A stretch of 64,000 nucleotides of DNA from IMG/VR virus record IMGVR_UViG_3300031993_000069, one strand, 5' to 3'. A program made the position numbers and the translations under genes. The stretch's first letter is position 1, and every line of letters begins with the position of its first letter. Positions 7,350 through 18,579 of this stretch are shown here, one piece after another. Source of the DNA: a virus. The notes beneath the pieces were generated by a model. The model did not search any database and was not told the origin of the DNA. It worked only from the letters and a program-made list of their open reading frames with translations.

Positions 7350-7433
7350 GCCCCGGTGGTGAAATGGTAGACACAAGGCACTTAAAATGCCTCGCCGAAA
7401 GGCATGCCAGTTCGACTCTGGCCCGGGGCACCA
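7350..7433 (+). tRNA. tRNA-Leu(TAA), class II
   Basis: Cloverleaf with acceptor GCCCCGG/CCGGGGC, anticodon loop CTTAAAA, long variable arm, A73 and encoded CCA. Confidence 0.8.
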
Positions 7434-7438
7434 CTCAT

Positions 7439-7515
7439 GGCGTCATGGAGAAGGGGCTTAACTCAGCAGCCTCTCAAGCTGCCATTCGCGGGTTCGAATC
7501 CCGCTGACGTCACCA
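7439..7515 (+). tRNA. tRNA-Glu(CTC)
   Basis: Acceptor GGCGTCA/TGACGTC, anticodon stem GCAGC/GCTGC with loop CTCTCAA, T-loop GGTTCGAATCC, CCA. Confidence 0.65.
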
Positions 7516-7636
7516 AGTTGTTAAAAATTTTTAGAAAATATATTTACAATTTAAAAAAATAATTGTATAATATTAATGAGCGTTGAAAAAAGATACGCTA
7601 AATTAAAATGGTCGCAAGACAGGAAGGAAAAGATTT

Positions 7637-7750
7637 ATGGCAAAAGTTATGTTTGGGAACATTCATGAACAACGTAATGATTCAGTATATGGTTGCTGGA
7701 ATATTTTTGCTACTCTTGGATCATCCGGTTTTGTGCAGGTTAATCGATAA
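7637..7750 (+). CDS. small hypothetical peptide (37 aa) inside the tRNA island
   Basis: RBS AGGAAGGAAA 7 nt upstream of the ATG; followed by a strong terminator. Confidence 0.3.
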   Translation: MAKVMFGNIHEQRNDSVYGCWNIFATLGSSGFVQVNR

Positions 7751-7780
7751 GATTAATTAAGAAGAATAACGCATAAATTA

Positions 7781-7812
7781 GGGTGGTCCGAAAAAGACCA
7801 CCCTTTAATTTT
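7781..7812 (+). terminator. rho-independent terminator
   Basis: GGGTGGTC-CGAAAAA-GACCACCC followed by TTTAATTTT. Confidence 0.8.
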
Positions 7813-7813
7813 C

Positions 7814-7899
7814 TGGGGAGATAGCCAAGCGGCAACGGCAGCTGACTGTAAATCAGCCCTCTGACGAGTTCGTAGGTTCGAGTCCTACTCTCCCCACCA
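7814..7899 (+). tRNA. tRNA-Tyr(GTA)
   Basis: Acceptor GGGGAGA/TCTCCCC, anticodon loop CTGTAAA, long variable arm, CCA. Confidence 0.8.
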
Positions 7900-7903
7900 A
7901 CAT

Positions 7904-7980
7904 GGTGTATGGAATCCGACGGTTTTGGATGCTAGTCTGTGAAACTAGATCATTGGGTCCGACTCCCAGCATGCACCCCA
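7904..7980 (+). tRNA. tRNA-His(GTG) with encoded G-1
   Basis: G-1:C73 pair, acceptor GTGTATG/CATGCAC, anticodon loop CTGTGAA, CCA. Confidence 0.75.
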
Positions 7981-7985
7981 GTTAT

Positions 7986-8061
7986 GGGCCGGTAGCTCAG
8001 TTGGTAGAGCACGTGCCTGAAGAGCATGGTGTCGGCGGTTCGATCCCGCCCTGGCCCACCA
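7986..8061 (+). tRNA. tRNA-Phe(GAA)
   Basis: Acceptor GGGCCGG/CTGGCCC, D-arm GCTCAGTTGGTAGAGC, anticodon loop CTGAAGA, CCA. Confidence 0.85.
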
Positions 8062-8076
8062 TAAGAAAGGAAAAGT

Positions 8077-8505
8077 ATGAAAGTTGTATTCTTAGATATC
8101 GATGGCGTATTGAATGATGCTGTTAATATCCACAACCTGATGGATGACAAACCAACAAAAGAGCACTTAGACTGCCTAAAAGCAATCTTAGATGCTACTG
8201 GTGCAAAAGTCGTACTGTCCTCAACTTGGAGATTATTCCCAAACTCCAAGAATATCGTAAAGAATTGTTTACGAAACATTGGCTCTGATATCTATGATAT
8301 AACTAAAGAGCTGCCAAAAGGGAGAGGTGCCGAAATAAAAGAATGGCTTAGTCGACACCCGGAGGTAAATCAGTTCGTTATCTTAGATGACGACATTGCT
8401 GATATTAAGCCATATTACCCAGCGAATATCGTAAAAACGACATTTTATAGGGGATTGCTTCCTCATCACATTGAGCCAGCAATAAAAATCTTAAATGCCG
8501 AGTAA
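8077..8505 (+). CDS. HAD-superfamily hydrolase/phosphatase (142 aa)
   Basis: N-terminal FLDIDGVL (HAD motif I DxDG) and a later ILDDD motif. Sits inside the tRNA island. Confidence 0.6.
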   Translation: MKVVFLDIDGVLNDAVNIHNLMDDKPTKEHLDCLKAILDATGAKVVLSSTWRLFPNSKNIVKNCLRNIGSDIYDITKELPKGRGAEIKEWLSRHPEVNQFVILDDDIADIKPYYPANIVKTTFYRGLLPHHIEPAIKILNAE

Positions 8506-8519
8506 AATCGGCATCACAT

Positions 8520-8596
8520 TGGAGCGTAGCTTAGCTGGTTAAAGCACTCGGCTGATAACCGAGAGACCGCCGGTTCAAATCCGGCCGCTCCAACCA
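8520..8596 (+). tRNA. tRNA-Ile(GAT)
   Basis: Acceptor TGGAGCG/CGCTCCA, anticodon stem CTCGG/CCGAG with loop CTGATAA, CCA. Confidence 0.8.
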
Positions 8597-8600
8597 ATCT

Positions 8601-8675
8601 TGGGGAGTAGCCAAGCGGTAAGGCACGTGGCTTTGAACCATGTATGCGAAGGTTCGAACCCTTCCTCCCCAGCCA
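8601..8675 (+). tRNA. tRNA-Gln(TTG)
   Basis: Acceptor TGGGGAG/CTCCCCA, loop CTTTGAA, CCA. Confidence 0.8.
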
Positions 8676-8743
8676 GTTAGAGCCTATACTTATTTCTAAA
8701 AACTTCCGACTGCAAATCAGAATAATATAGTTAGGCCAAAATT

Positions 8744-8817
8744 AGGGGTATCGTCCAACGGTAGGACTACGGTCTCCAAAACCGTCTATCTGGGTTCGAA
8801 TCCTAGTACCCCTGCCA
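8744..8817 (+). tRNA. tRNA-Trp(CCA)
   Basis: Acceptor AGGGGTA/TACCCCT, anticodon loop CTCCAAA, G73, CCA. Confidence 0.85.
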
Positions 8818-8821
8818 ATGT

Positions 8822-8909
8822 AGAAGCTTGTGTGAGCGGTTGAAACAGTTGGTCTAGAAAACCAATATGCTGAAAGGCATCGAGGGTTCGAATCCCTCAG
8901 CTTCTGCCA
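8822..8909 (+). tRNA. class II tRNA-Ser with anticodon loop CTAGAAA (anticodon AGA, A34)
   Basis: Acceptor AGAAGCT/AGCTTCT, G73, long variable arm TATGCTGAAAGGCAT, anticodon stem TTGGT/ACCAA. Confidence 0.6.
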
Positions 8910-8928
8910 AAAATATTTAAAAAAAGTA

Positions 8929-8957
8929 TTTACAACCTAAATAAATGGTTGTATAAT
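8929..8957 (+). promoter_or_regulatory. sigma70-like promoter
   Basis: TTTACA-N16-TGTATAATAT. Confidence 0.6.
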
Positions 8958-9190
8958 ATGAATGTGAATATGAGGACTGAAAAGACCATCACTCAGTAAG
9001 TTTGAATAGAGTAGGTATGACGACTCCTGACACCGCTTAGTCGTCATGTCTGTGAACAAGATTTCACAGCGGCAGGCTAATGCCGTAAAACTTAGTCTAG
9101 GGTACAGCTGATGCGAACGTGGCAAAGGCCGAGGCCGAAGAAGGGCATAACAGGAGCGGACACCCTCTAAAGAGTGAGGCCACCAGATAT
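8958..9190 (+). ncRNA. unidentified structured ncRNA candidate (~230 nt) transcribed from the 8929 promoter
   Basis: ORF-free and GC-enriched. Contains several perfect hairpins (ATGACGACT...AGTCGTCAT, CTGTGAA...TTCACAG, CGGCA...TGCCG). Ends where tRNA-Glu begins. Confidence 0.35.
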
Positions 9191-9267
9191 GGTGCCGTGG
9201 AGAAATGGTTTAACTCATCACCCTTTCAAGGTGACATTCACGGGTTCGAATCCCGTCGGCATCACCA
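9191..9267 (+). tRNA. tRNA-Glu(TTC)
   Basis: Acceptor GGTGCCG/CGGCATC, anticodon stem TCACC/GGTGA with loop CTTTCAA, CCA. Confidence 0.8.
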
Positions 9268-9272
9268 AATTT

Positions 9273-9359
9273 GGAGAGCTGTGATAATTGGTAGTCGGGC
9301 GGTCTTGAAAACCGTTGGGTCGAAAGGCCTTCAGGGTTCGAGTCCCTGGCTCTCCGCCA
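9273..9359 (+). tRNA. tRNA-Ser(TGA), class II
   Basis: Acceptor GGAGAGC/GCTCTCC, loop CTTGAAA, long variable arm, G73, CCA. Confidence 0.85.
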
Positions 9360-9467
9360 TTATCACTTATTAGTACCCACTTGCTCAATACTAGTAATGA
9401 GCAGACAAAAAAGAACGCCAGGTGAAATAAATTTTAAGGGTTTAAGTTCAGAGTAGCCACTTATCAT

Positions 9468-9544
9468 GGGTCACTAGCTCAATTGGTTAGAGCAGCCGGC
9501 TGTTAACCGGCAGGTTGTGGGTTCGAGTCCCTCGTGGCCCGCCA
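9468..9544 (+). tRNA. tRNA-Asn(GTT)
   Basis: Acceptor GGGTCAC/GTGGCCC, loop CTGTTAA, CCA. Confidence 0.8.
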
Positions 9545-9682
9545 TACGGTCCTTAGATATATTACCTTCTCGTGGTGGGACTGAACAGCTAAAGGATACT
9601 TGGAATTAATAGTATCGGCTAGACGAAACTTATATCGTAAAGACACGACTGGCCTGACGTGCGTAAATAACGGCCACCAAAT

Positions 9683-9757
9683 GGATCGCTCGTATATCGG
9701 TTAGTATACTTGGCTGTCTACCATGGGAGGAGGGTTCGATTCCCTCGCGGTCCGCCA
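9683..9757 (+). tRNA. tRNA-Asp(GTC)-like (atypical anticodon stem)
   Basis: Acceptor GGATCGC/GCGGTCC, loop CTGTCTA, T-arm GAGGGTTCGATTCCCTC, CCA. One mismatch in the anticodon stem and a pyrimidine at position 37. Confidence 0.5.
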
Positions 9758-9945
9758 TTGGAGCCTATACTTATTTCTAATTTGAAGATTCCAAGCCGCC
9801 ATTCGTAGGTTCGAATCCTACCATACCAGTATGGTATGTAGCCAAGCGGGAAGGCAGCGGCCTCAACAAAGCCAGTTAGGCCAAAATTAATTAAAACAAA
9901 TAAAGGAGATTAAGCTTATGTAATTATTTTAAAGGAGAAAAACTT

Positions 9946-10200
9946 ATGAATAGTTACTTTCGTAAAAAATACGAGAAACAAAAGCTTAAAAAACTAGCTG
10001 AAAAATGTGCTGGTTGGTGTGGCGGCAGCTATTATAGCGAAAGAAAAGGCCGTTACATTCGTTTTTGGAAAAGCCAAGGTAAAAATTCCTTCTGGGCTAC
10101 CGAAAAAAGATATGGCAGACGCATCTATCGAAGAAAGGCTAATAAAGTTGATTATAAATTAGCTAAAAAAGCCTTCGATCTTTGGTGGAATGTTTGGTAA
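9946..10200 (+). CDS. small basic hypothetical protein (84 aa)
   Basis: ORF with RBS AAAGGAG; Lys/Arg-rich. Confidence 0.5.
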   Translation: MNSYFRKKYEKQKLKKLAEKCAGWCGGSYYSERKGRYIRFWKSQGKNSFWATEKRYGRRIYRRKANKVDYKLAKKAFDLWWNVW

Positions 10201-10232
10201 AATGCTGTATAATATTAAGAGGTATACTCAGT

Positions 10233-11192
10233 ATGACTAAAATTATCCAAAATTTTTCAAGCAAAAAGCATATTAAAGCACTTCCTGTATTTGATATATT
10301 ACTTTGGAGTGCTGGATTACTTAATTTTAAAAAATTAGGCTATAAAACGAAGCTCTATTGTGAAAAATCAGATATTCCCTTCTTAAAGCGCTGGGGTTTA
10401 TATGATCTCTATGATGAAATTGATAGTAGATATCTAACAAAATTAGAGGAAGATGAGCGCTTTAAACAAATTGATGGTAATTGGTTTTGGTCTGTAAGAA
10501 AGCTATTTTGCATTGAACATGAATATAGTCTTAAATCAAAAGATAAATTCATGTATTTCGATACTGACATCTTACTTTATGACCATATTGAATTGCCAGA
10601 TTGGGCAAACCTATTCGTCTGGTCTATTGAAGAAGAGCCTATTTATATTCCTTGGGAATTCATGTCAGTTCCAGAAGGTTATAAAAAGCCTGAAGAATTC
10701 GATGATGACATGATTGCCTATAATTGTGGTATCTTAGCATTCAGCGATAAAGAAAAGTTTGAGCAATATTTTGCTGAATACTTGAAATTTACACAAGGAA
10801 ATCCCTGTAAATTATTACAAGGAGCTAATACTTCTGAGAAAACCCTCAAAAATATTTGGGCCTGTAATGCAGAGCAACGTATCCTATTAAATATTTCTCG
10901 TGCTGGAGACTGGAAAACTGTTATATTTGCAAATCCAGAGCAAGAAACCGGAATTCTTGGTTTCTATAAGGGCGGTAAACATTTCTATTTACTTCGTGCA
11001 ATTCTAAGAGATTTCACAGATGAAACTCAGGAGTCATTTAGAAACTTCTGGTTAGATATGTATAATGAAAATATCAAAGAATGCTTAGAGGTATTAGAAA
11101 AAGAAAATCCAGCACAATTAAATATATTCTTAGAAATTCCTTGGATTAAAAATTTATATAAATATAATTTCAAGGTAAAAGAATATAAGTAA
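10233..11192 (+). CDS. hypothetical protein (~320 aa)
   Basis: ATG at 10233 follows the TGTATAATAT promoter (10205) and RBS AAGAGG. The track ORF 10182 start lies upstream of the promoter. Confidence 0.6.
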   Translation: MTKIIQNFSSKKHIKALPVFDILLWSAGLLNFKKLGYKTKLYCEKSDIPFLKRWGLYDLYDEIDSRYLTKLEEDERFKQIDGNWFWSVRKLFCIEHEYSLKSKDKFMYFDTDILLYDHIELPDWANLFVWSIEEEPIYIPWEFMSVPEGYKKPEEFDDDMIAYNCGILAFSDKEKFEQYFAEYLKFTQGNPCKLLQGANTSEKTLKNIWACNAEQRILLNISRAGDWKTVIFANPEQETGILGFYKGGKHFYLLRAILRDFTDETQESFRNFWLDMYNENIKECLEVLEKENPAQLNIFLEIPWIKNLYKYNFKVKEYK

Positions 11193-11203
11193 AGGAGATA
11201 GCA

Positions 11204-11494
11204 ATGGGCGAAGATGTTTGGACATTGGGGCTATTTACCCTAAGAGACTACAACCATACAGAACCAGAATTAAAGGCTTGTGACCATTTATTCTGTATTA
11301 CTTATCAACAAGGGCAAGAGGAATATCCAGTAATGCTCTTGTGGAAACGCGGTAAACGATGTTTTACCAGGACCTGTAATGCTCCAGGTCTTAAATTACC
11401 AAAAGATATGCAAACAGCTATGTATCTATCAAGATTATCTACGGCTGCCATTCGTATCTTAAATGGTGAAAAGTTTAACCTATTTGATATATAA
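11204..11494 (+). CDS. hypothetical protein (96 aa)
   Basis: ORF with RBS AAGGAGATAGCA. Confidence 0.5.
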   Translation: MGEDVWTLGLFTLRDYNHTEPELKACDHLFCITYQQGQEEYPVMLLWKRGKRCFTRTCNAPGLKLPKDMQTAMYLSRLSTAAIRILNGEKFNLFDI

Positions 11495-11508
11495 AATAGG
11501 CACGACAT

Positions 11509-11594
11509 TGCGGTGGAGTGGCACGGACAACTATAAACCATTCTAGGCTCATAACCTAGCGATACCGGGTTCGACTCCCGAGCACCGCAACCAG
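11509..11594 (+). tRNA. tRNA-Met(CAT)-like with an enlarged D-region
   Basis: Acceptor TGCGGTG/CACCGCA, anticodon stem CTAGG/CCTAG with loop CTCATAA, T-loop TTCGACT, CCA. Length 85 nt with a 16-nt D-loop. Confidence 0.5.
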
Positions 11595-11875
11595 GAGTAG
11601 TTTTTGTTAGTTTTTGGAGCGCCAAGATCAAATACAAACTAACAGACAGTGTGACTATGTATATGATAGCACTATTCTAAAAATCGAAAGGATATACACC
11701 AGAAATTTGGTCGGCTAGTTGGCGTAAACCTAGCGATAGGAGCGTTTGCAACAGACCCTCAATAACTGCAGTGAGAGGGCAAGCACGAGCCTCCAAGAAG
11801 AGACTGCGATGGATGAAATATTCCTAGTGCACTTGGGCCGAGGACACAAGGTTCACTGGTTAAAGAACAAAACAC

Positions 11876-11951
11876 GGGGTATTGGTGCAGCGGTTAACAT
11901 GCCTCCCTGTCACGGAGGAGACCACGGGTTCGAATCCCGTATGCCCCGCCA
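11876..11951 (+). tRNA. tRNA-Asp(GTC)
   Basis: Acceptor GGGGTAT/ATGCCCC, anticodon stem CCTCC/GGAGG with loop CTGTCAC, CCA. Confidence 0.8.
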
Positions 11952-11980
11952 GTTCTTATTCAATTTATTTAGGAGGAGTT

Positions 11981-12283
11981 ATGATTATTACATTTAATGA
12001 TTTTTATGTCAATGTAACAGAAAATAATGTGCATATTCATGACTCTTACAAGATAAAAGGTAAGAAAAGAAAGCTTGAAATCATTAATGCAATCATAGCT
12101 TTCTGTCCAGAAGCTTTCAAAACTAGAACAATTAAGTCAGTTCTGAGAGAGTGGCGTGCACATAATGTCTTATATAAATTACATATTGCTAGAAATAGCA
12201 CAATGCATACAGACATTGAAGCACATCAAAAATTATTTTATAAAATTAGCTATTTACTTATTAATATATTCGGTATAGAATAA
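11981..12283 (+). CDS. hypothetical protein (100 aa)
   Basis: ATG with RBS AGGAGGAG 5 nt upstream, directly after tRNA-Asp. Confidence 0.5.
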   Translation: MIITFNDFYVNVTENNVHIHDSYKIKGKKRKLEIINAIIAFCPEAFKTRTIKSVLREWRAHNVLYKLHIARNSTMHTDIEAHQKLFYKISYLLINIFGIE

Positions 12284-12289
12284 GTATAT

Positions 12290-12365
12290 GGCTGGGTAGC
12301 CAAGTGGTTAAGGCGTCAAGCTCATACCTTGAAGATCGTCAGTTCAAATCTGACCCCAGCTACCA
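12290..12365 (+). tRNA. tRNA-Met(CAT)
   Basis: Acceptor GGCTGGG/CCCAGCT (G1·U72), loop CTCATAC, CCA. Confidence 0.7.
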
Positions 12366-12370
12366 GGTAT

Positions 12371-12445
12371 GCTCGCTTAATTCAGCGGGAGAAGGCAATC
12401 CTTACAAGATTGAGGTCGGCAGTTCGAATCTGTCAGCGAGCACCA
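12371..12445 (+). tRNA. tRNA-Val(TAC)
   Basis: Acceptor GCTCGCT/AGCGAGC, anticodon stem CAATC/GATTG with loop CTTACAA, CCA. Confidence 0.75.
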
Positions 12446-12644
12446 CGGCATGTATGCAATTATAAAACGCAGCCTACCGGTAAAGTAGGTGCTCTGAGTA
12501 GTCTCGAAGTAAGAGCTTTGTGGAATATTGCTAAATCGAGACTTTAGTAACAATATTCTAGGTGCAATTCCCACCATGCCAACCACCGCTCGGCTAGAGC
12601 ACAGCAAATCATACGGCTGTGTAGGAGAATCCCCGAGCAACCAC

Positions 12645-12718
12645 GCGGGAATAGGACAGTGGTAGTCCATCTGCTTGCCATGCAGACTACGCGGGTTCGA
12701 TTCCCGTTTCCCGCTCCA
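12645..12718 (+). tRNA. tRNA-Gly(GCC)
   Basis: Acceptor GCGGGAA/TTCCCGC, loop TTGCCAT, CCA. Confidence 0.8.
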
Positions 12719-12789
12719 CCAGGACAGATAAAGATTAGGTTCTTTATTAGGTTCTATGGCTGGACAAATCGATAAAACCAGCCACATTT

Positions 12790-12863
12790 GCGGGTATCGT
12801 CCAATGGTAGGGCCTCTGCCTTCCAAGCAGAAGATACCGGTTCGATCCCGGCTACCCGCTCCA
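12790..12863 (+). tRNA. tRNA-Gly(TCC)
   Basis: Acceptor GCGGGTA/TACCCGC, loop CTTCCAA, CCA. Confidence 0.8.
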
Positions 12864-12892: not shown

Positions 12893-12985
12893 AAAACACT
12901 TAAACTCAGTAAACTAAGTCGCCGTCGCTGTATAGCATGTTTTCGTTGTTGTCTTATAAATACCGCGTTAGCTCAATTGGATTAG
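12893..12985 (+). CDS. small Cys-rich basic peptide (30 aa) candidate
   Basis: RBS AGAAGGAGAAAATGCAATG. The peptide MKTLKLSKLSRRRCIACFRCC... has CxxC..CC spacing. Overlaps the 5' end of tRNA-Arg. Confidence 0.2.
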   Translation, partial: KTLKLSKLSRRRCIACFRCCLINTALAQLD

Positions 12986-13039
12986 AGCATATCGCTACGA
13001 ACGATAAGGTTGTGGGTTCGAGCCCTACACGCGGTGCCA
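12962..13039 (+). tRNA. tRNA-Arg(ACG)
   Basis: Acceptor ACCGCGT/ACGCGGT, loop CTACGAA, CCA. Confidence 0.8.
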
Positions 13040-13045
13040 GACATA

Positions 13046-13122
13046 GGATAGGTACCCAAGTGGCTTAAGGGAGCGGTCTGCAACACCGTTATTCGTGGGT
13101 TCGAATCCCATCCTATCCTCCA
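13046..13122 (+). tRNA. tRNA-Cys(GCA)
   Basis: Acceptor GGATAGG/CCTATCC, loop CTGCAAC, CCA. Confidence 0.8.
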
Positions 13123-13125
13123 AAT

Positions 13126-13200
13126 GGTCGTATAGCTCAACGGCAGAGCGGGCTCCTTATAAGGGCTAGGTTCCTGGTTCGAATCCAGGTGCGACCACCA
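13126..13200 (+). tRNA. tRNA-Ile(TAT) (AUA-decoding type)
   Basis: Acceptor GGTCGTA/TGCGACC, anticodon stem GGCTC/GGGCT (2 G·U) with loop CTTATAA, CCA. Confidence 0.55.
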
Positions 13201-13301
13201 AAACATGTTAATAGCACGCTCCTTTATGAAAAATCTTCAATATAAAGGAGTTTATTTATTTCAGCAAATATTGTATAATATAAAAGCAAGGAGCTATAAA
13301 A

Positions 13302-13820
13302 ATGATTGGTAAACACTTAAAAGACTATAAAAAAGCTTATAAAGCTGACCGCAGAGAAAACAGAAGAACTTGCGTTAAAAGAAATTCTGATTGGAAAAAA
13401 CGCTGGTTACCATTTATTAAGTATGATCATGATTTTGACGGCTTCTTCCTAATTGAACTTATGGTTCATAAATTACATATTATGCTTGATTACTATGACC
13501 ATGGCAAATATTGTATGCAAGTCGATGAGAGCCGACTTGAAATTGTTGAAAGCTTAAAAGAAGCTTGTAGACTTGGTGATTTAATCTTAGAGGATGATTT
13601 CAATGAACCTGCCTATAAAGTTATGATGGAACACCACCGTATGTGGACTGAGCCATGCAAAGACAATAGTCATCTTTGTGAAATTAAAATGGAATGGGAT
13701 AGCCCAGAGGCTAAGGCTGAATATGATAGGCTTGAAAAAGAAACTGATGCTCTCAGAGAAAAGACTATCGATGAATTCTTCGATTTTGTTAGAAAACATT
13801 ATCGTGAATGGTGGGATTAA
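13302..13820 (+). CDS. hypothetical protein (172 aa)
   Basis: ORF behind TGTATAATATAAAAGCAAGGAG. Confidence 0.6.
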   Translation: MIGKHLKDYKKAYKADRRENRRTCVKRNSDWKKRWLPFIKYDHDFDGFFLIELMVHKLHIMLDYYDHGKYCMQVDESRLEIVESLKEACRLGDLILEDDFNEPAYKVMMEHHRMWTEPCKDNSHLCEIKMEWDSPEAKAEYDRLEKETDALREKTIDEFFDFVRKHYREWWD

Positions 13821-13861
13821 TTAGTCCTCATCGAAAATGTCATTGAAAAAAACTAGACATT

Positions 13862-13952
13862 GGAGGAATACCCAAGAGGCCGAAGGGGACGGTTTGCTAA
13901 ACCGTTAGTGGTCGCAAGGCCAGCGAGGGTTCAAATCCCTCTTCCTCCGCCA
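13862..13952 (+). tRNA. tRNA-Ser(GCT), class II
   Basis: Acceptor GGAGGAA/TTCCTCC, anticodon stem ACGGT/ACCGT with loop TTGCTAA, long variable arm, G73, CCA. Confidence 0.8.
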
Positions 13953-13957
13953 TCTAT

Positions 13958-14034
13958 GCCCCGGTAACCGAATTGGCATAGGTACTAGACTTAGAATCTA
14001 GGTTCTGTGGGTTCAAGTCCCACTCGGGGTACCA
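13958..14034 (+). tRNA. class I (77 nt) tRNA with anticodon TAG (a Leu anticodon) and short variable loop
   Basis: Acceptor GCCCCGG/TCGGGGT (two G·U), anticodon stem CTAGA/TCTAG with loop CTTAGAA, 4-nt variable loop, T-loop GGTTCAAGTCC, A73, CCA. Confidence 0.55.
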
Positions 14035-14037
14035 TAT

Positions 14038-14415
14038 GGGCTCGTACTGGTTTCGATTGGTATTTGATGCTTATGACTACAGCAAGCTGATAACTTACTA
14101 TCAAACAAAAACAAACGACAAAACAAACTTTATGGCACACCTTGCCAACAACCAAATGGTTGCTGCTCGCGCCTAGTTCGCGAGAATGGTGATTGAGCTA
14201 GATAAGGTCGAATTTAGTTCTCTATTAATCAGACCTCGATGTTTATATCTAAGTAACTCCATATAAATGTTTAAATAAAGAGTAGACAACTGCTAGTATC
14301 GGATCGAAGGACTTGAGGTTCGCCGATAAAAAGAATATTTCTCAGGTTAAAGCTGTAATTAACGTTGTGGGGGTTTGGTATCAAGACAGGAGTTCGATTC
14401 TCCTCGGGTCCACCA
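14038..14415 (+). ncRNA. ssrA: tmRNA (transfer-messenger RNA)
   Basis: The 5' end GGGCTCGTACTGGTTTCGATTGG resembles the canonical tmRNA 5' end GGGGCUGAUUCUGGAUUCGAC. The 3' end AGGAGTTCGATTCTCCTCGGGTCCACCA pairs with the 5' acceptor and has G3·U70 and A73 (Ala identity). Length 378 nt. The internal frame ...NNQMVAARA-TAG is a candidate tag ORF. Confidence 0.75.
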
Positions 14416-14419
14416 TAAT

Positions 14420-14506
14420 GGGCGAGTGGCGTAACTGGTAGCCGCAATGGTCTAAGAAGCCATTGACCGAAAGGTCGTAGGGGTTCAAGTCCCCTCTCGC
14501 CCACCA
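14420..14506 (+). tRNA. tRNA-Leu(AAG), class II, A34
   Basis: Acceptor GGGCGAG/CTCGCCC, anticodon stem ATGGT/GCCAT with loop CTAAGAA, long variable arm TGACCGAAAGGTC, A73, CCA. Confidence 0.6.
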
Positions 14507-14561
14507 GAGTTATCTTTAATAATATTGTATAATATATTAGATATTGAAAGGAATTTATCTT

Positions 14562-14894
14562 ATGTATAGTTTACAAGAATTAATTGAACATGGATATGTC
14601 GATAGTATTACAACTGATGGAACACATCTTGGTGATGGTTATACTATTGTTGTTAAACTAAGCAGATATTCTATTGGTAAGATTACAATTAATGTTGGTA
14701 TTGATGAATACTTAGATGATGCTGTTACGCTTATTAATGGTATTATTGATATTCAAGAAAGCTTAAATAAAGAAGCTAAACCGGAAGAAAAGCCAACTAT
14801 TAGACATGTAACTGATCCAGATGAAATAAAGGAAATACTTTCTGGAACAGCAATTAAAGACACAAAAATTGAACCAGAGGATTATGCGGAATAA
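14562..14894 (+). CDS. hypothetical protein (110 aa)
   Basis: ATG behind promoter TGTATAATAT (14525) and RBS GAAAGGAA. Confidence 0.55.
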   Translation: MYSLQELIEHGYVDSITTDGTHLGDGYTIVVKLSRYSIGKITINVGIDEYLDDAVTLINGIIDIQESLNKEAKPEEKPTIRHVTDPDEIKEILSGTAIKDTKIEPEDYAE

Positions 14895-15073
14895 TGTATC
14901 AAATTATTAAAGACGATAAATATTATCTATATAATGATATAGGCGAAGAATTAATGACAATTACCTTCGACAATTCATTACCAGGAGACCAAGTAGTTAT
15001 TACTACACAGGATGAAGTTTATGCTGGTCCAATAAAATTTGTTACTTTTTCTGGAGATATTCCAAAAGAGTAG
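14894..15073 (+). CDS. small hypothetical protein (59 aa)
   Basis: ATG overlaps the upstream stop (ATAATG). Coding-like composition. Confidence 0.35.
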   Translation: MYQIIKDDKYYLYNDIGEELMTITFDNSLPGDQVVITTQDEVYAGPIKFVTFSGDIPKE

Positions 15074-15089
15074 CTTGTATATTATTAAT

Positions 15090-15186
15090 AGGGGCTTAGT
15101 GTAACGGCAGCACAACGGTCTTCAAAACCGCAAAGCGGGGGCCTCCAAAACCCCAGGTGCGGGTTCGAATCCTGCAGCCCCTGCCA
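15090..15186 (+). tRNA. Trp-like opal-suppressor tRNA, anticodon TCA, with an unusual 25-nt extra arm
   Basis: Acceptor AGGGGCT/AGCCCCT, G73, CCA. The D-arm and anticodon stem ACGGT/ACCGC are nearly identical to tRNA-Trp(CCA) at 8744, but the loop is CTTCAAA. A 25-nt insertion AAAGCGGGGGCCTCCAAAACCCCAG between the anticodon and T arms forms a hairpin. Own promoter TTGTATATTATTAAT sits immediately upstream. Confidence 0.7.
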
Positions 15187-15252
15187 TATAGAGCCTGTAC
15201 TTATTTCTATCACAAACCTTGAAATTTGCACGCAGTAGTCAGGCCATTTATT

Positions 15253-15438
15253 TTTATGAAATTTAAGTATAGAATTATTTGGGTTAATACAGTTAAAGGA
15301 AAACAAGAATATGTTGATATCGATGACCAGCATATTGTATTGTTTGTCGCTAAGAAAAAAGTTAGCGATGGAATGCAAGGAGTCATCATTCAAGTTTCTG
15401 GTGATCCATCTATGACTGACCCAGATGATGCTAGCTGA
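15253..15438 (+). CDS. hypothetical protein (61 aa)
   Basis: ORF downstream of motif A. Confidence 0.3.
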   Translation, partial: FMKFKYRIIWVNTVKGKQEYVDIDDQHIVLFVAKKKVSDGMQGVIIQVSGDPSMTDPDDAS

Positions 15439-15504
15439 CCGGCTATTGATGCGAATGCTTCTGAAGCTGAAAATAAAATAATTTAAAAAAATTAAAAAAA
15501 ACTA

Positions 15505-15534
15505 TTTACAAAAAATAAAAAAGTATTGTATAAT
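15505..15534 (+). promoter_or_regulatory. sigma70-like promoter
   Basis: TTTACA-N16-TGTATAATAAT. Confidence 0.6.
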
Positions 15535-15539
15535 AATAT

Positions 15540-16180
15540 TGTGAGTGTTAAGCAAGCACTCCAAAAGTGTTCTTTGAAAAATTTTAATTGGCACCTCGAT
15601 GAAGACATCTTGCACGATGGTCGAGGCTCGGCTCTAAGATGATGATAACTGGTGGGATACTGCTGGGTAAGTTGAAACTTCCAAAGTGATGAAGAAGTAA
15701 ACCTATTTAATTAGGATTGAGTCGATGGCGCAATTTGTTGCAGCGATTTAGATGAAAACACATATGCGGGTCCGACAAGAAGCTCTGGCCGTAAGGTCAT
15801 CTCACCTGTGGTATTAAGCCTGAGAAACTTAATGCCCGGTAACTCAAAGGAAGGACGCGACTTGATGTCAAGAAATTGACTATAACTGGTAATGTGTTTG
15901 TACAAGTAGCCGTATGTCGTACTACAAAGCTTTAACAGGATATTTATTAAATACTTTGCTGAAGCTCGGTGAAAGTTGATAGGTAAAGGTCCTATCTGTG
16001 GAAGTCGTAAGACCATTGGAGAAGTTATAGGGTAGCTCCCTGTGACTCAGCCTCCCGTGAGCATCCATTAATAAAGTCAAGCAATAAGGGTTGTATGGTG
16101 AAGACCGGAAATTAAAATTTTTTAAAGAGCACTTAAAAGTATTGCTAAATTAAGTAGACTTAAAAAGTCAGAAGGAGAAA
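15540..16180 (+). ncRNA. unidentified ~640-nt ORF-free structured RNA candidate
   Basis: Lies between a strong promoter and a small ORF. GC-enriched relative to the genome, with no ORF above 60 aa on the + strand. No RNase P P4 motif (GGAAAGUCC) seen. Confidence 0.3.
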
Positions 16181-16184
16181 AAGC

Positions 16185-16274
16185 ATGTTAAACTTAGTTA
16201 CTGTTAACGTTAGACCTACAGCAACAGCCAAACCAGCGTTGGTAAGTTTTGATATGCTCATGACCTCTGATAGA
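16185..16274 (+). CDS. small peptide (29 aa) candidate
   Basis: RBS AAGGAGAAAAAGC then ATG; followed by a perfect terminator. Confidence 0.25.
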
Positions 16275-16302
16275 TAAGTTAACTTAAAAACTTAACTAAG
16301 AT

Positions 16303-16335
16303 ACCGCAGTTGTGATGAGCAGCTGCGGTTTTTTT
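16303..16335 (+). terminator. rho-independent terminator
   Basis: CCGCAGTTGTGATGAGCAGCTGCGG followed by TTTTTTT. Confidence 0.85.
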
Positions 16336-16506
16336 AAGAAAAAATAACTAGCAATGTAAAACTCATAAGAGAGACGTGACGAAACCAAGGACTTCTGTGC
16401 CTTGGTCCCAAAAGTCTAAGGGATGAAATGAAGCCAGCAGTGCACAAAAAACTTGTTGCCTGATAAAAAAAGAGGCTGGTCAGGCAGAAGAAGAACGAAA
16501 GCTAGT

Positions 16507-16590
16507 TAATTATATGGGCCGATAGTTTAATTGGGAAAATACCCGCCCTGCAAGCGGGAGTTAGGGGTTCAAATCCCCACGTGTCCACCA
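16507..16590 (+). pseudogene. tRNA-like element (Ala-TGC-like anticodon arm, T-arm and CCA) with a non-pairing acceptor stem
   Basis: CCCGC-CCTGCAA-GCGGG anticodon-like arm, GGGGTTCAAATCCCC T-arm and a 3' CCA. The 5' GGGCCGA does not pair with the 3' CGTGTCC. Confidence 0.3.
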
Positions 16591-16595
16591 TTTAT

Positions 16596-16671
16596 GGGGG
16601 TGTAGCTCATCTGGGAGAGCACTTGATTAGCATTCAAGAGGTAGCGAGTTCGATCCTCGTCACTTCCACCA
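16596..16671 (+). tRNA. tRNA-Ala(AGC), A34
   Basis: Acceptor GGGGGTG/CACTTCC with G3·U70 and A73. Anticodon stem CTTGA/TCAAG with loop TTAGCAT. CCA. Confidence 0.6.
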
Positions 16672-16735
16672 GACAGAACCTGTGCTTATTTCTAACGTTA
16701 AATTTGGGATTTAAAAAGTAGCAGCCAGGTCAATT

Positions 16736-16811
16736 GCCGCCTTAGCTCAACTGGCAGAGCAACCGCCTTGTAAGCGGTAGGTTACTGGTTCGATTCCGGT
16801 AGGCGGCACCA
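16736..16811 (+). tRNA. tRNA-Thr(TGT)
   Basis: Acceptor GCCGCCT/AGGCGGC, loop CTTGTAA, CCA. Confidence 0.8.
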
Positions 16812-16815
16812 CTTT

Positions 16816-16892
16816 GGGGGTGTAGCTCAATTGGGAGAGCGCTCGCCTTGCAAGCGAGGGGTTGCGGGTTCAAGTCCCGTCACGTTCCACCA
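16816..16892 (+). tRNA. tRNA-Ala(TGC) with a 1-nt bulge in the 3' acceptor strand
   Basis: Acceptor GGGGGTG with G3·U70, anticodon stem CTCGC/GCGAG with loop CTTGCAA. The 3' strand CACGTTCC carries one extra nt. CCA. Confidence 0.6.
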
Positions 16893-17049
16893 CTAAAATG
16901 TAAGCCTATACTTATTTCTCCTCCTAAATTGTTGGGGGCCTTAGTTAGGCAATCAAAAAATTCATGCCACGGAAGGAAAACCGTATAAACCCTTACAGCT
17001 TCGTTCTTAGCCAGACGTAGACTAAGATAAAGTTAAGCTGATGTAATTT

Positions 17050-17126
17050 CGGGAGTTGGCTCAGCTTGGTAGAGCACTTGATTTGGGATCAAGGGGTCAA
17101 GGGTTCGAATCCCTTACTCCCGACCA
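17050..17126 (+). tRNA. tRNA-Pro(TGG)
   Basis: Acceptor CGGGAGT/ACTCCCG, loop TTTGGGA, CCA. Confidence 0.8.
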
Positions 17127-17251
17127 TTAGAGAACCTGTACTTATTTCTTAGCTTTGGGAGCCGCTGTTTGTTGGTTCGAGTCCAGCCTTCCCGACCATT
17201 ATCGGGAAGTAGGCAAATTGGTAAAGCCGGCGTTTATTAGTCAGGTCATAT

Positions 17252-17327
17252 GCGCTTTTAGCTCAGTTGGGAGAGCGTCTGCTTGACGTGCAGAAGGTCG
17301 TAGGTTCGAGCCCTGCAAGGCGCACCA
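17252..17327 (+). tRNA. tRNA-Val(GAC)
   Basis: Acceptor GCGCTTT/AAGGCGC, anticodon stem TCTGC/GCAGA with loop TTGACGT, CCA. Confidence 0.75.
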
Positions 17328-17331
17328 TTAT

Positions 17332-17408
17332 GCTCCTCTAGCCCAACTGGCAGAGGCAATGAGCTCAAACCTCATTCAGTATCGGTTCGAATCCGATGGG
17401 GAGTACCA
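17332..17408 (+). tRNA. class I (77 nt) tRNA with anticodon CAA (a Leu anticodon) and short variable loop
   Basis: Acceptor GCTCCTC/GGGGAGT, anticodon stem ATGAG/CTCAT with loop CTCAAAC, 5-nt variable loop, A73, CCA. Confidence 0.5.
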
Positions 17409-17427
17409 AAAAATTATTAAAAAACTG

Positions 17428-17456
17428 TTTACAACGCAGAATAAATGTTGTATAAT
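17428..17456 (+). promoter_or_regulatory. sigma70-like promoter
   Basis: TTTACA-N14-TTGTATAAT. Confidence 0.55.
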
Positions 17457-17566
17457 TATGAATGTAAGGTCGCGATGTGTGAGCATTAAACTATCGGCCC
17501 CTCACCTCCGAAAACCGTAGGCCGAGTCGGACCTTATATATAGATTGTTCAAAAAGGAGAAGAGTT

Positions 17567-17647
17567 ATGATGACAATGAACAAGAAAAACATCAAGAATA
17601 GAAAAACTAGAAAAACTAGTTCATTTAGTCATGGCTTAATTCAGTAA
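17567..17647 (+). CDS. small basic peptide (26 aa) candidate
   Basis: RBS AAAAGGAGAAGAG then ATGATG; followed by a terminator hairpin and T-run at ~17678-17712. Confidence 0.25.
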   Translation: MMTMNKKNIKNRKTRKTSSFSHGLIQ

Positions 17648-17772
17648 AACACTAATAATACGTTAACGTAAGATAGAGTGCCGAGTGGTTAAGCCGCCCG
17701 GCATTTTTTCTGGGATTACGTTAGCGCAACGGACAGGGACGACATAAGAGCGTGCTTTTCCAGAAATCACAT

Positions 17773-17849
17773 ACCTCCGTAGCTCAACTGGACAGAGCAT
17801 CGGTCTTCTAAACCGCAGGTTGGGCGTTCGAGTCGCCCCGGGGGTGCCA
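17773..17849 (+). tRNA. tRNA-Arg(TCT)
   Basis: Acceptor ACCTCCG/CGGGGGT, loop CTTCTAA, CCA. Confidence 0.75.
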
Positions 17850-17853
17850 AATC

Positions 17854-17928
17854 GCGTCCATAGCCAAGTGGTATGGCAATCGGCTTTTAACCGATGTACC
17901 GAGGGTTCGAATCCTTCTGGGCGCACCA
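17854..17928 (+). tRNA. tRNA-Lys(TTT)
   Basis: Acceptor GCGTCCA/TGGGCGC, loop CTTTTAA, CCA. Confidence 0.8.
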
Positions 17929-17933
17929 CATAT

Positions 17934-18010
17934 GCCTCCATAGCAAAATTGGCTAATGCACCTGACTCTTAATCAGGGGATTCTGGGTTCGAGTCCCAGT
18001 GGGGGTACCA
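17934..18010 (+). tRNA. tRNA-Lys(CTT)
   Basis: Acceptor GCCTCCA/TGGGGGT, loop CTCTTAA, CCA. Confidence 0.75.
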
Positions 18011-18012
18011 AT

Positions 18013-18088
18013 GCGCCGGTAGCTCAGCCGGTAGAGCACGTGACTTTTAATCACGGGGTCCAGAGTTCGAACCTCTGCCGGCGCACCA
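18013..18088 (+). tRNA. tRNA-Lys(TTT), second copy
   Basis: Acceptor GCGCCGG/CCGGCGC, loop CTTTTAA, CCA. Confidence 0.75.
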
Positions 18089-18090
18089 AT

Positions 18091-18165
18091 GCTGATTTAG
18101 TTTAATTGGTAAAATAATTCTCTCGTAAAGAATAGTAGTGTGTTCGAAACATACAATCAGCACCA
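18091..18165 (+). tRNA. tRNA-Thr(CGT), AT-rich
   Basis: Acceptor GCTGATT/AATCAGC, anticodon stem ATTCT/AGAAT with loop CTCGTAA, T-arm GTGTGTTCGAAACATAC, CCA. Confidence 0.7.
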
Positions 18166-18261
18166 TTAGAGCCTATGCTTATTTCTAGCTCAATGAGAGC
18201 GTTTGACATTTAATCAAAAGGTATAGCTAGGCCATTCTTGATAAATCTACTGTATAATATA

Positions 18262-18500
18262 ATATGGTTGCGATGAATTTTGCAGTTTCGACCCATGTGC
18301 ACAGAAATAGAAACTGCCTATAGGTTAATGTTGACCATAGTTATTGGTGCAGAGTACGTAATCTGCGAGGTAAACTCCGGTGTATGTTCATTCGCCGACC
18401 TATGAAGCTAAAAAATGAACGGAGATAGCGTATAAAAATGATTTATGAAAAGTACGTAACGCCCATGAGGAGAGGCCTCATGCTTCAATAAAAAACAAAA
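18262..18500 (+). ncRNA. unidentified structured RNA candidate (~240 nt) behind the 18250 promoter
   Basis: ORF-free. Ends in the hairpin CATGAGG-AGAG-GCCTCATG immediately before the next tRNA. Confidence 0.3.
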
Positions 18501-18503
18501 CTT

Positions 18504-18579
18504 GCCGGCTTAGCTCATCTGGTAGAGCAATTCACTAGTAATGAATAGGTGGTCAGTTCGAGTCTGGCAGCCGGCACCA
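18504..18579 (+). tRNA. tRNA-Thr(AGT), A34
   Basis: Acceptor GCCGGCT/AGCCGGC, anticodon stem ATTCA/TGAAT with loop CTAGTAA, CCA. Confidence 0.6.

Follow-up and report, generated by a model that had tools for sequence, protein, structure and literature searches.

A tRNA and tmRNA array matching the codon vocabulary of a large phage, with a predicted opal suppressor and an uncatalogued family of RNA modules

Huge phages carry up to 60-odd tRNAs. A comparable array is that of the cluster C1 mycobacteriophages, in which 32 tRNAs and 1 tmRNA are encoded within 155 kb (PMC13014143), and phage tRNAs have been regarded as substitutes for depleted or cleaved host tRNAs (PMC10264068). Other relevant non-coding RNAs have been described: ROOL RNAs occur near tRNAs and in phages (PMC5737381), other members having been reported by cryo-EM to assemble into homo-oligomeric cages (PMC12286853); YrlA-type Y RNAs are modular small RNAs of bacteria and phages that act with Ro60/Rsr (PMC4201824), and some jumbo phages encode a ROT/TROVE protein with a tRNA-like partner (PMC7824862). 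Here we describe a stretch of 64,000 nt, one strand of the IMG/VR virus record IMGVR_UViG_3300031993_000069 (hereafter the window), whose region 7350-18579 holds a dense array of tRNA genes together with a tmRNA. We consider it highly probable that this region is an island for translation and RNA maintenance, belonging to a large tailed phage whose community is of the gut or rumen type, with proposed roles in tRNA independence, stop-codon suppression, tmRNA function and tRNA repair.

With default settings, ARAGORN finds 36 tRNAs and one tmRNA in this region, every one on the + strand; the rest of the 64 kb yields no others. The Rfam tRNA model (RF00005) returns 37 tRNAs at 40.6-75.5 bits, against a gathering threshold of 29, the additional one being a third tRNA-Ala, with anticodon TGC (16516-16587). 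Two marginal genes, tRNA-His(GTG) and a second tRNA-Met(CAT), neither of which reaches E <= 1 with Rfam, bring the total to 39 tRNAs plus the tmRNA (Table 1), covering all 20 amino acids; an encoded CCA is present in 38 of the 39. ARAGORN reports the His gene only at -ps70; its T loop (TCCGACT) is non-canonical, its G-1 (at 7904), C73 and CCA all being present, while the second Met gene (11510-11589) is found only under relaxed settings (-ps90/-ps85) and shows an aberrant D arm and an oversized D loop. The tag peptide of the tmRNA, as read by ARAGORN, is DKTNFMAHLANNQMVAARA, followed by a stop. An earlier, sequence-only reading of this DNA had proposed about 40 tRNAs for all 20 amino acids, nearly all with an encoded CCA, and a tmRNA; our searches confirm this picture and, instead of rejecting most of the hand-folded cloverleaves, the covariance model places 37 tRNAs above its threshold. 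The anticodons it listed are correct as given, but Leu-TAG (13958), Leu-CAA (17332) and the third Ala were omitted; its His tRNA with G-1 and its two Met tRNAs were recovered, though His and the second Met only at relaxed thresholds. The agreement of both programs shows, at the level of sequence prediction, that the tRNA and tmRNA genes of the array are real.

Similar arrays stand beside the same gene in related contigs. We used as marker the 671-aa product of the gene at 1422-3437 and labelled the relatives' loci L001, L006, L013 and so on. In L006, a 146 kb contig whose marker protein is 80% identical, 26 tRNAs follow nearly the order of the window, except that Leu-TAA and Glu-CTC are swapped and one Gln-CTG is added; other relatives carry 25 (L013), 28 plus a tmRNA (L028) and 21 tRNAs (L008 and L017). 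A large tRNA array is, on this ground, a trait of this clade of large phages.

The repertoire was compared with the codons of 59 window genes (15,635 codons), on the assumption that wobble is standard, that A34 acts as inosine and that U34 reads all four codons of a family box. Counted in this way, the phage tRNAs leave a single sense codon unread, CGG, which accounts for 0 of the 15,635 codons; if U34 is restricted to two-way wobble, Pro CCT and CCC become unread as well, and no others. The comparison shows that the predicted set would decode all 20 amino acids and every sense codon of the window genes, which supports the near-autonomous decoding set claimed in the sequence-only reading and provides an unusually clean case in which the tRNA repertoire of a virus and its codon vocabulary coincide exactly.

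Five of the tRNAs carry A34 (Arg-ACG, Leu-AAG, Ser-AGA, Thr-AGT and Ala-AGC), and the last four match the codons CTT, TCT, ACT and GCT favoured by the phage. A34 tRNAs other than Arg are nearly absent from prokaryotes (10.64898/2026.05.15.725136), so that their presence here for Leu, Ser, Thr and Ala is of particular interest; relatives carry further ones, Val-AAC and Ile-AAT (L015 5253, L019 14282). The A34 set resembles the substrate set of eukaryotic ADAT. As a separate observation, tRNA-Ile(TAT), also present in L006, L008, L010 and L017, would read AUA directly, without lysidine modification. Among the approximately 50 window ORFs scanned, we found no tRNA adenosine deaminase, aminoacyl-tRNA synthetase, release factor, SmpB or RNA ligase.

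One may ask whether the array simply compensates codon usage, an AT-rich phage supplying tRNAs in which its host is poor, with no role in anti-defence or in coping with host shut-off. The way in which the tRNA set mirrors phage codon use, with CGG absent and A34 tRNAs matching preferred NNT codons, is what this explanation would predict. However, coverage extends to all codons, common ones included, which is beyond what compensation needs, and tRNA-repair functions are co-located with the array: a protein with the HAD domain of "Swiss Army Knife" RNA-repair proteins (HAD_SAK_2) is encoded inside it, a Thg1-like tRNA-His guanylyltransferase or 3'-5' polymerase downstream, an AAA_28 kinase-like protein nearby, and two metallophosphoesterases have PHROG links to RNA ligase fusions. 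In the relative L001, a kinase-phosphatase-Rnl1 (Pnkp-Rnl1) fusion lies beside the marker gene. These neighbours point to tRNA damage as a selective pressure (PMC10264068, PMC7824862), and we regard compensation as the main or only function as unlikely. The Thg1-like gene lies 16 kb from the atypical tRNA-His that already encodes G-1; the enzyme may be there to mend damaged 5' ends of tRNAs, not to add G-1.

Within the array, the tRNA with anticodon UCA deserves separate attention. Its acceptor and T stems are 7/5, the D stem has 4 bp, a long variable arm is inserted and the discriminator is G73 (ARAGORN). Its acceptor stem, D arm, anticodon stem and T arm closely match those of the phage tRNA-Trp(CCA), which also gives its best alignment (35.4, against at most 27.2 for Ser, Leu and Tyr tRNAs). 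In the HslV-like peptidase gene (Table 1), an in-frame TGA falls in a column that is W in 18 of 18 full-length homologs, one of them 99% identical, the relatives carrying TGG at this site. The Trp(UCA) decoder named in the sequence-only reading is accordingly the right assignment, and the SeC label given by ARAGORN is contradicted by stem geometry, the Trp-like body and the TGA at a Trp column. A Ser-type suppressor, which the long arm and G73 had suggested, was rejected in favour of Trp by the alignment and the same column. That the tRNA inserts selenocysteine, the in-frame TGAs encoding Sec, draws on the ARAGORN call, the long variable arm and G73, but the stems are 7/5 and not the bacterial 8/5, the D stem has 4 bp and not 6, the body closely matches tRNA-Trp(CCA), the peptidase TGA aligns with an invariant Trp and not with Cys or Sec, and no SelA, SelB or SelD gene was found among the ORFs scanned; we give this identity very little credence.

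Other in-frame TGAs lie in fibre-like genes. In the collagen-repeat gene, Gly-X-Y repeats run on after the TGA (49195-49197) through a 56-codon stop-free spacer before any ATG; in a second gene, with CBM_5_12 domains in both halves, the TGA (41241-41243) is followed by a 40-codon open spacer. Of the 73 + strand ORFs, 11 end in TGA, and 5 of these continue in frame as far as the next ORF; for the 62 that end in TAA or TAG, the number is 3. For contigs of >100 kb, recoding has been recognised by a coding-density gain of >5% under code 4 (10.1101/2021.08.26.457843). Here, the summed open frames of at least 100 codons rise from 16,103 to 17,351 codons with TGA as sense, the smallest rise of the three stops, only 5 gene fusions arise from this reading, and in-frame TGA stands against TGG at 5 to 209, i.e. 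at 5 of 214 Trp positions (2%). A candidate second TGA=Trp site, in the 58651-59976 fusion, found no relative in the viral-contig search and only two homologs in the protein search, both starting after the junction.

These numbers could also be read as inactivating mutations or assembly errors under a standard code, with the suppressor incidental or serving rare read-through only. The scarcity of TGA at Trp-equivalent positions, the TGG kept by close relatives at the peptidase site and the small gain in long open frames all agree with it. On the other side stand the contrast in in-frame continuation between TGA and the other two stops, the 40- and 56-codon spacers free of stops, one of them with collagen repeats before any start codon, the presence in the same genome of a UCA tRNA that derives from tRNA-Trp and folds into a good cloverleaf (54.4 bits), and the fact that such recoding is documented in gut phages (10.1101/2021.08.26.457843). 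We judge a standard code improbable. The alignments and the tRNA together indicate that TGA is read as Trp at some sites at least, a low-level recoding predicted from sequence that looks like a minimal or incipient stage. An apparently early stop-codon reassignment of this kind, with a Trp-derived suppressor, few TGG-to-TGA changes and relatives still at TGG, bears on how changes of the genetic code start.

Two observations touch on the same subject. ORF 44039-44700 contains a poly-Gly run, a TGA and an in-frame poly-Gly stretch (GGGGGGGGGDAQY, TGA, GQGSPGGGGGGGGG) leading to a second TGA, a possible read-through site. In the 220 kb relative L017, an 89-nt tRNA-like gene (16193-16281) has an 8-nt anticodon loop with UCAC (ARAGORN), and may be a divergent suppressor or a frameshift-type tRNA.

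A repeated RNA module is interleaved with the tRNAs. The 19-nt motif GAGCCTATACTTATTTCTA occurs in 13 copies at <=3 mismatches, against 0.02 expected, each on the + strand; at 7272 lies a 14th that has diverged further. The copies pair with an AGT-TAGGC-C partner 22-94 nt downstream at 8 of 8 positions, giving the architecture 5'-G(A)GCCUA(U)ACU-UAUUUCUA-(variable insert)-AGU-UAGGC-C-3'. Pairing holds in 99.2% of cells across the 14 copies, and compensatory change is seen at 6 of the 9 pairs, none of the shuffled or slid controls coming close. A covariance model built from the window copies (R1), searched against relatives left out of its building, returned 63 matches, of which 43 are distinct; in the distinct ones, 99.5% of cells pair and 47 are compensatory. 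In IMG/VR, R1-positive modules are confined to large contigs of this clade, often in tandem clusters of 3-5; about half of 72 IMG/VR matches to a 16-nt module pattern were discarded as chance, with no R1 match. No Rfam family matches the basal helix of the module. The module represents an RNA family that covaries strongly and is not catalogued in Rfam.

Nine modules lie in or at the array and five in a tandem cluster approximately 6 kb upstream, directly before the gene of the 671-aa marker protein, making 14 per 64 kb. Eight follow a tRNA 3' end at a distance of 1-13 nt and two begin at predicted transcription starts. The inserts are short hairpins in most copies and a permuted tRNA-like domain in three (9761, 17132 and 18581); in each of these the order is T arm, closed acceptor hairpin and D arm, i.e. 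a circularly permuted tRNA-like fold. The three match the YrlA model (RF02553) at 28.2, 24.4 and 40.1 bits, the last with E 6e-8 on the short stretch searched, in no case reaching the gathering threshold of 69 bits and covering only the tRNA-like core (model 23-86). The modules would most likely be processed out as stable small RNAs.

The marker protein, which combines an N-terminal helical-repeat region with a TerD-fold domain, is the candidate partner of these RNAs. A module lies within 300 nt upstream of its homolog, on the same strand, in 22 of 24 distinct related loci, including six loci in metagenome-assembled genomes (MAGs), with proteins 39-55% identical, and loci without any tRNA within 10 kb. 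Over 32 homologs, Pfam at E <= 10 gives no TROVE match and TerD only weakly, in 3 members; the 671-aa protein shows no C-terminal vWA/MIDAS domain. Neither phmmer and profile searches against PDB sequences nor Foldseek against the PDB gave a match, and tblastn against 50,697 GenBank phages gave remote partial matches only; full-length structural relatives are present in Lactobacillus phage LpeD (A0A291I9M6) and Campylobacter virus IBB35 (H6SUA9). Since the TROVE tests are negative, the analogy with Y RNA and Ro60 is functional and suggestive only, and membership of either family is not supported.

We tentatively propose that the modules, with their covarying bulged basal helix, invariant loop strand (UAUUUCUA) and interchangeable apical parts, are new Y-RNA-like phage small RNAs that, with the helical+TerD protein as partner, would form a Ro60-independent ribonucleoprotein (RNP) in tRNA arrays. 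If so, this RNP could serve the quality control or repair of tRNAs, or it could be a decoy that diverts host defences directed at tRNA. Somewhat doubtful, in our view, is the alternative that the modules are cis signals, i.e. processing sites in tRNA precursors and a 5'-UTR regulator of the helical+TerD gene, and not trans-acting RNAs. Their position just after tRNA 3' ends or at predicted transcription starts, and in the 5' leader of the conserved gene at nearly all loci, is in line with such a function, but tandem clusters of 3-5 without a tRNA between them (window 671-1321, L052 and L080) are not, and the variable apical inserts, some of them complete YrlA-type permuted tRNA-like domains, would be needless in a cleavage signal. 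Variable apical inserts are typical of modular trans-acting RNAs. The two functions are, moreover, not exclusive, as RNA-binding proteins commonly autoregulate through a copy of their ligand in their own leader. The tight linkage of the module to one uncharacterised protein family, which has structural relatives in cultured phages, makes the proposed trans-acting RNP a directly testable candidate.

The array also contains a ROOL RNA, matched over its full length. A promoter match of its own precedes it (15505-15534), and a short ORF (16186-16275) and a terminator (16303-16329) follow, so that this RNA is placed here in a defined transcription unit among tRNA-maintenance genes. The ROOL RNA, the modules, the ORFs within the array and the surrounding RNA-repair genes were all absent from the earlier reading.

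The array as a whole would be laid out in several units after near-identical promoters of the sigma-70/sigma-A type. Five + strand sites match TTTACA-17/18-TATAAT at 11 of 12 positions (1212, 7543, 8929, 15505 and 17428), and a sixth, at 7237-7265 and ending in TATATT, at 10 of 12. Most tRNAs are spaced 3-10 nt apart, and RNase P and 3' processing would therefore release them from polycistronic precursors. In this regard, the sequence-only reading had described host-type promoters and strong terminators delimiting several independently transcribed operons: the consensus promoters are present, but clear + strand intrinsic terminators within the array number only two (7780-7804 and 16303-16329), so that this part of the description is confirmed only to a limited extent, and what argues for separate operons is the set of promoter matches only. 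Two very short ORFs, 7638-7750 (37 codons) and 17568-17648 (26 codons), have a strong promoter before them and a terminator-like hairpin after them, and stand just ahead of the Tyr-His-Phe and the Arg-Lys-Lys-Lys-Thr clusters, respectively, a layout that recalls leader-peptide attenuators. Spacers at 8911-9190, 11653-11875 and 12446-12585 are 85-88% identical to L006, flanking coding DNA being only 73-82% identical; folding z-scores are unremarkable (8962-9190, -1.2; 11594-11875, -0.45; 12446-12644, -2.3). The stretch 12447-12642 shows two hairpin domains, each closed by an acceptor-like stem and followed by ACCA.

Taken together, these features allow us to propose a model in which the island would free phage protein synthesis largely from the host tRNA pool, be the difficulty with that pool a mismatch to AT-rich phage codons, its depletion on host shut-off or cleavage by anticodon nucleases. 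The HslV-like peptidase and the fibre-like proteins would be completed only once phage tRNAs, the suppressor among them, are expressed; the tmRNA would clear stalled ribosomes; and the products of the Thg1-like, HAD_SAK, kinase-like and phosphoesterase genes would repair damaged tRNAs. The module RNAs might be bound by the helical+TerD protein as Y RNA is by Ro60, a hypothesis drawn from synteny and architecture only.

Several points weigh against this model or parts of it. The His and one of the Met tRNAs are structurally aberrant and may be pseudogenes, and no initiator-type tRNA-Met was recognised by eye in the set, which is to that extent not fully autonomous. Reading of CUC, UCC, ACC, GCC, CGC and CGA requires either I34 editing or four-way U34. 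The overall count of terminators, 17 against 14.5 in shuffles, is not above chance. Only one in-frame TGA is tied to Trp by homology and, at the frequency given above, the genome is far from a full code 4. As to the RNP, hhalign of the 671-aa protein against human Ro60 (an approximate query sequence) gave a probability of 0.2, and the hypothetical partnership between protein and modules is argued from synteny alone.

The phage origin of the window is supported, on gene content, by tail-fibre families (one protein with many PHROG tail matches), three collagen-repeat fibre-like proteins of 905-1040 aa besides CBM_5_12 fibre-like proteins (Pfam), PhoH, thymidylate synthase and dihydrofolate reductase (DHFR) genes, and viral relatives; its long ORFs are all on the + strand. 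The marker protein has >500 metagenomic homologs, on European Nucleotide Archive (ENA) contigs of up to 290 kb, and is carried by 24 IMG/VR viral contigs of up to 237 kb; relatives are contigs of 130-290 kb, with 20-28 tRNAs in each 10 kb flank. When the array and the structural region were compared by megablast with the 50,697 GenBank phages, there were short matches to tRNAs or none at all, from which we conclude that no close cultured relative exists among them. The scale of jumbo or mega-phages, suggested in the earlier reading, is reached by relatives of up to 290 kb but not by the window phage on present record, whose own proteins occur on a longest contig of approximately 146 kb, below the 200 kb jumbo threshold.

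Homologs of the marker protein are also found in MAG bins under the names Bacteroidales, Anaeroplasmataceae, Clostridium sp. CAG:288, Christensenella and others, which might suggest that the region is a tRNA cluster of a bacterial chromosome or belongs to some non-viral element. We find this scarcely credible: tail-fibre families and collagen-repeat fibre-like proteins are present with all genes on one strand, the marker protein stands on viral contigs, a relative encodes a holin and NrdD, the window has no rRNA or housekeeping genes, and the MAG matches, which are to short contigs or to a scaffold of 130 kb, fit phage DNA that has been binned. The bins are mostly of gut/rumen Firmicutes lineages and give a weak hint that the host is found there.

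Some further observations concern the surroundings of the island. A c-di-GMP-I riboswitch aptamer lies 35 nt upstream of ORF 26863-27537 (224 aa, without Pfam or PHROG family), which may be regulated by the host second messenger through it. The approximately 3.6 kb from 29400 to 33000 hold no ORF of >117 aa on either strand, with code 11 or with TGA or TAG as sense, so that recoding of TGA or TAG was rejected as the cause; GC is slightly raised, no tandem repeats were found, and an Rfam scan gave only a sub-threshold abiF RNA (31484-31519, 34.5 bits against 37). This stretch could hold further non-coding RNAs or many tiny genes. In L001 (279-3021) and its copy L002, NrdD is called as two ORFs of 432 and 339 aa with approximately 420 nt between them; it is a single 727-aa ORF in L004, and the split could be an intron, an intein or a recoding site.

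Table 1. Features of the window, in order of position; R1 is the covariance model of the repeated module.
Feature	Coordinates	Strand	Evidence or remark
Five-module cluster	671-728, 788-848, 971-1042, 1098-1181, 1271-1321	+	R1 36.8-47.5 bits
671-aa protein, N-terminal helical-repeat + TerD-fold domain	1422-3437	+	candidate module partner
PhoH-like ATPase	4288-5196	+	Pfam PF02562, 8e-32
Proteasome/HslV-like peptidase	5779-6459	+	homolog alignment; in-frame TGA 6175-6177
Module with T-arm-like hairpin	7272-7346	+	R1 32.4 bits; predicted start of first tRNA transcript
tRNA-Leu(TAA)	7350-7433	+	ARAGORN; Rfam 56.0 bits
tRNA-Glu(CTC)	7439-7515	+	ARAGORN; Rfam 57.8 bits
tRNA-Tyr(GTA)	7815-7899	+	ARAGORN, Rfam
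tRNA-His(GTG), marginal	7905-7980	+	ARAGORN -ps70 only
tRNA-Phe(GAA)	7986-8061	+	ARAGORN, Rfam
HAD_SAK_2 protein	8077-8505	+	Pfam PF18143, 1.9e-25
tRNA-Ile(GAT)	8520-8596	+	ARAGORN, Rfam
tRNA-Gln(TTG)	8601-8675	+	ARAGORN, Rfam
Module, short insert	8680-8738	+	R1 47.9 bits; directly after tRNA-Gln
tRNA-Trp(CCA)	8744-8817	+	ARAGORN, Rfam
tRNA-Ser(AGA)	8822-8909	+	ARAGORN, Rfam
tRNA-Glu(TTC)	9191-9267	+	ARAGORN, Rfam
tRNA-Ser(TGA)	9273-9359	+	ARAGORN, Rfam
tRNA-Asn(GTT)	9468-9544	+	ARAGORN, Rfam
tRNA-Asp(GTC)	9683-9757	+	ARAGORN, Rfam
Module, permuted tRNA-like insert	9761-9883	+	YrlA 28.2 bits, model 23-85; helix 8/8
tRNA-Met(CAT), marginal	11510-11593	+	ARAGORN -ps90/-ps85 only
tRNA-Asp(GTC), second copy	11876-11951	+	ARAGORN, Rfam
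tRNA-Met(CAT)	12290-12365	+	ARAGORN, Rfam
tRNA-Val(TAC)	12371-12445	+	ARAGORN, Rfam
tRNA-Gly(GCC)	12645-12718	+	ARAGORN, Rfam
tRNA-Gly(TCC)	12790-12863	+	ARAGORN, Rfam
tRNA-Arg(ACG)	12962-13039	+	ARAGORN, Rfam
tRNA-Cys(GCA)	13046-13122	+	ARAGORN, Rfam
tRNA-Ile(TAT)	13126-13200	+	ARAGORN, Rfam
tRNA-Ser(GCT)	13862-13952	+	ARAGORN, Rfam
tRNA-Leu(TAG)	13958-14034	+	ARAGORN, Rfam
tmRNA	14038-14415	+	ARAGORN; Rfam RF00023 66.5 bits (gathering 47), model positions 1-374 of 374
tRNA-Leu(AAG)	14420-14506	+	ARAGORN, Rfam
tRNA(UCA), Trp-derived opal suppressor (predicted)	15090-15186	+	ARAGORN ("SeC"), Rfam 54.4 bits
Module	15191-15246	+	R1 48.4 bits; directly after suppressor tRNA
ROOL RNA	15571-16127	+	Rfam RF03087 213.1 bits (gathering 99.1), model positions 1-574 of 574
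tRNA-Ala(TGC), weak	16515-16589	+	Rfam
tRNA-Ala(AGC)	16596-16671	+	ARAGORN, Rfam
Module	16676-16732	+	R1 42.9 bits
tRNA-Thr(TGT)	16736-16811	+	ARAGORN, Rfam
tRNA-Ala(TGC)	16816-16888	+	ARAGORN, Rfam
Module	16902-16952	+	R1 40.0 bits
tRNA-Pro(TGG)	17050-17126	+	ARAGORN, Rfam
Module, permuted tRNA-like insert	17132-17248	+	YrlA 24.4 bits; basal helix 8/8
tRNA-Val(GAC)	17252-17327	+	ARAGORN, Rfam
tRNA-Leu(CAA)	17332-17408	+	ARAGORN, Rfam
tRNA-Arg(TCT)	17773-17849	+	ARAGORN, Rfam
tRNA-Lys(TTT)	17854-17928	+	ARAGORN, Rfam
tRNA-Lys(CTT)	17934-18010	+	ARAGORN, Rfam
tRNA-Lys(TTT)	18013-18088	+	ARAGORN, Rfam
tRNA-Thr(CGT)	18091-18165	+	ARAGORN, Rfam
Module	18169-18234	+	R1 48.8 bits
tRNA-Thr(AGT)	18504-18579	+	ARAGORN, Rfam
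Module, permuted tRNA-like insert + anticodon-arm-like hairpin	18581-18702	+	YrlA 40.1 bits, model 24-84
SAM methyltransferase	18793-19602	+	Pfam; 3' edge of array
SPFH/Band-7-flotillin protein	19686-21257	+	Pfam; 3' edge of array
Thg1-like tRNA-His guanylyltransferase / 3'-5' polymerase	24159-25109	+	Pfam PF04446, 1.6e-30
c-di-GMP-I riboswitch aptamer	26753-26828	+	Rfam RF01051, 52.4 bits (gathering 35)
Fibre-like protein	38487-42671	+	CBM_5_12 domains in both halves; in-frame TGA 41241-41243
Tail-fibre family protein	42933-44024	+	many PHROG tail matches
Collagen-repeat fibre-like protein	46480-49818	+	Pfam Collagen; in-frame TGA 49195-49197

Phage tRNA arrays, tmRNAs, ROOL RNAs near tRNAs and TGA-to-Trp recoding have all been described, so that the headline feature is not new in kind, and an array of phage tRNAs with a tmRNA is an already known type. 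With the cluster C1 mycobacteriophages the locus shares dozens of co-oriented tRNA genes in one block with a tmRNA inside, encoded CCA ends and a large genome of lytic type; unlike arrays of that type, it has a ROOL RNA and nine uncatalogued RNA modules interleaved among the tRNAs, four A34 tRNAs beyond Arg, an opal suppressor and a repertoire equal to the phage codon set, with CGG unused. The Thg1-like, HAD_SAK, kinase-like and metallophosphoesterase genes that flank the array recall the tRNA-repair counter-defence of T4 (Pnkp and Rnl1 against PrrC), although no RNA ligase was identified in the 64 kb window; together with the L001 fusion, they match the RNA-repair repertoire of jumbo phages (PMC7824862).

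The code-4 gut phages of the Agate and Jade clades (10.1101/2021.08.26.457843) likewise combine a suppressor tRNA(UCA) with TGA aligned to Trp; there, too, the host is probably a member of the Firmicutes that uses the standard code, and fibre-like (structural) genes carry in-frame stops. Here, in contrast, there are only about 5 in-frame TGAs per 64 kb, probably too few to reach the coding-density gain by which recoded genomes are called, close relatives still use TGG, the suppressor has a long inserted variable arm, and neither RF1 nor TrpRS was seen in the window. With YrlA Y RNAs, the modules share a conserved bulged basal helix bearing a variable apical part, in three cases a permuted tRNA-like domain on a long stem, and a location beside a conserved helical-repeat protein among RNA-repair genes; they differ in a basal helix and conserved loop (UAUUUCUA) that do not match the YrlA model, in a far higher copy number, and in an adjoining protein with a TerD domain and without TROVE or vWA signature. 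The ROOL RNA, a full-length match adjoining tRNAs in a phage, resembles known members, and only its own strong promoter and its place in the middle of a 39-tRNA array set it apart. What is distinctive about the locus is the exact match of repertoire and codons, the A34 tRNAs, the long-armed Trp-derived suppressor with sparse TGA, the ROOL RNA and the gene-linked modules, and its usefulness lies in bringing all these features together in one compact, comparable clade.

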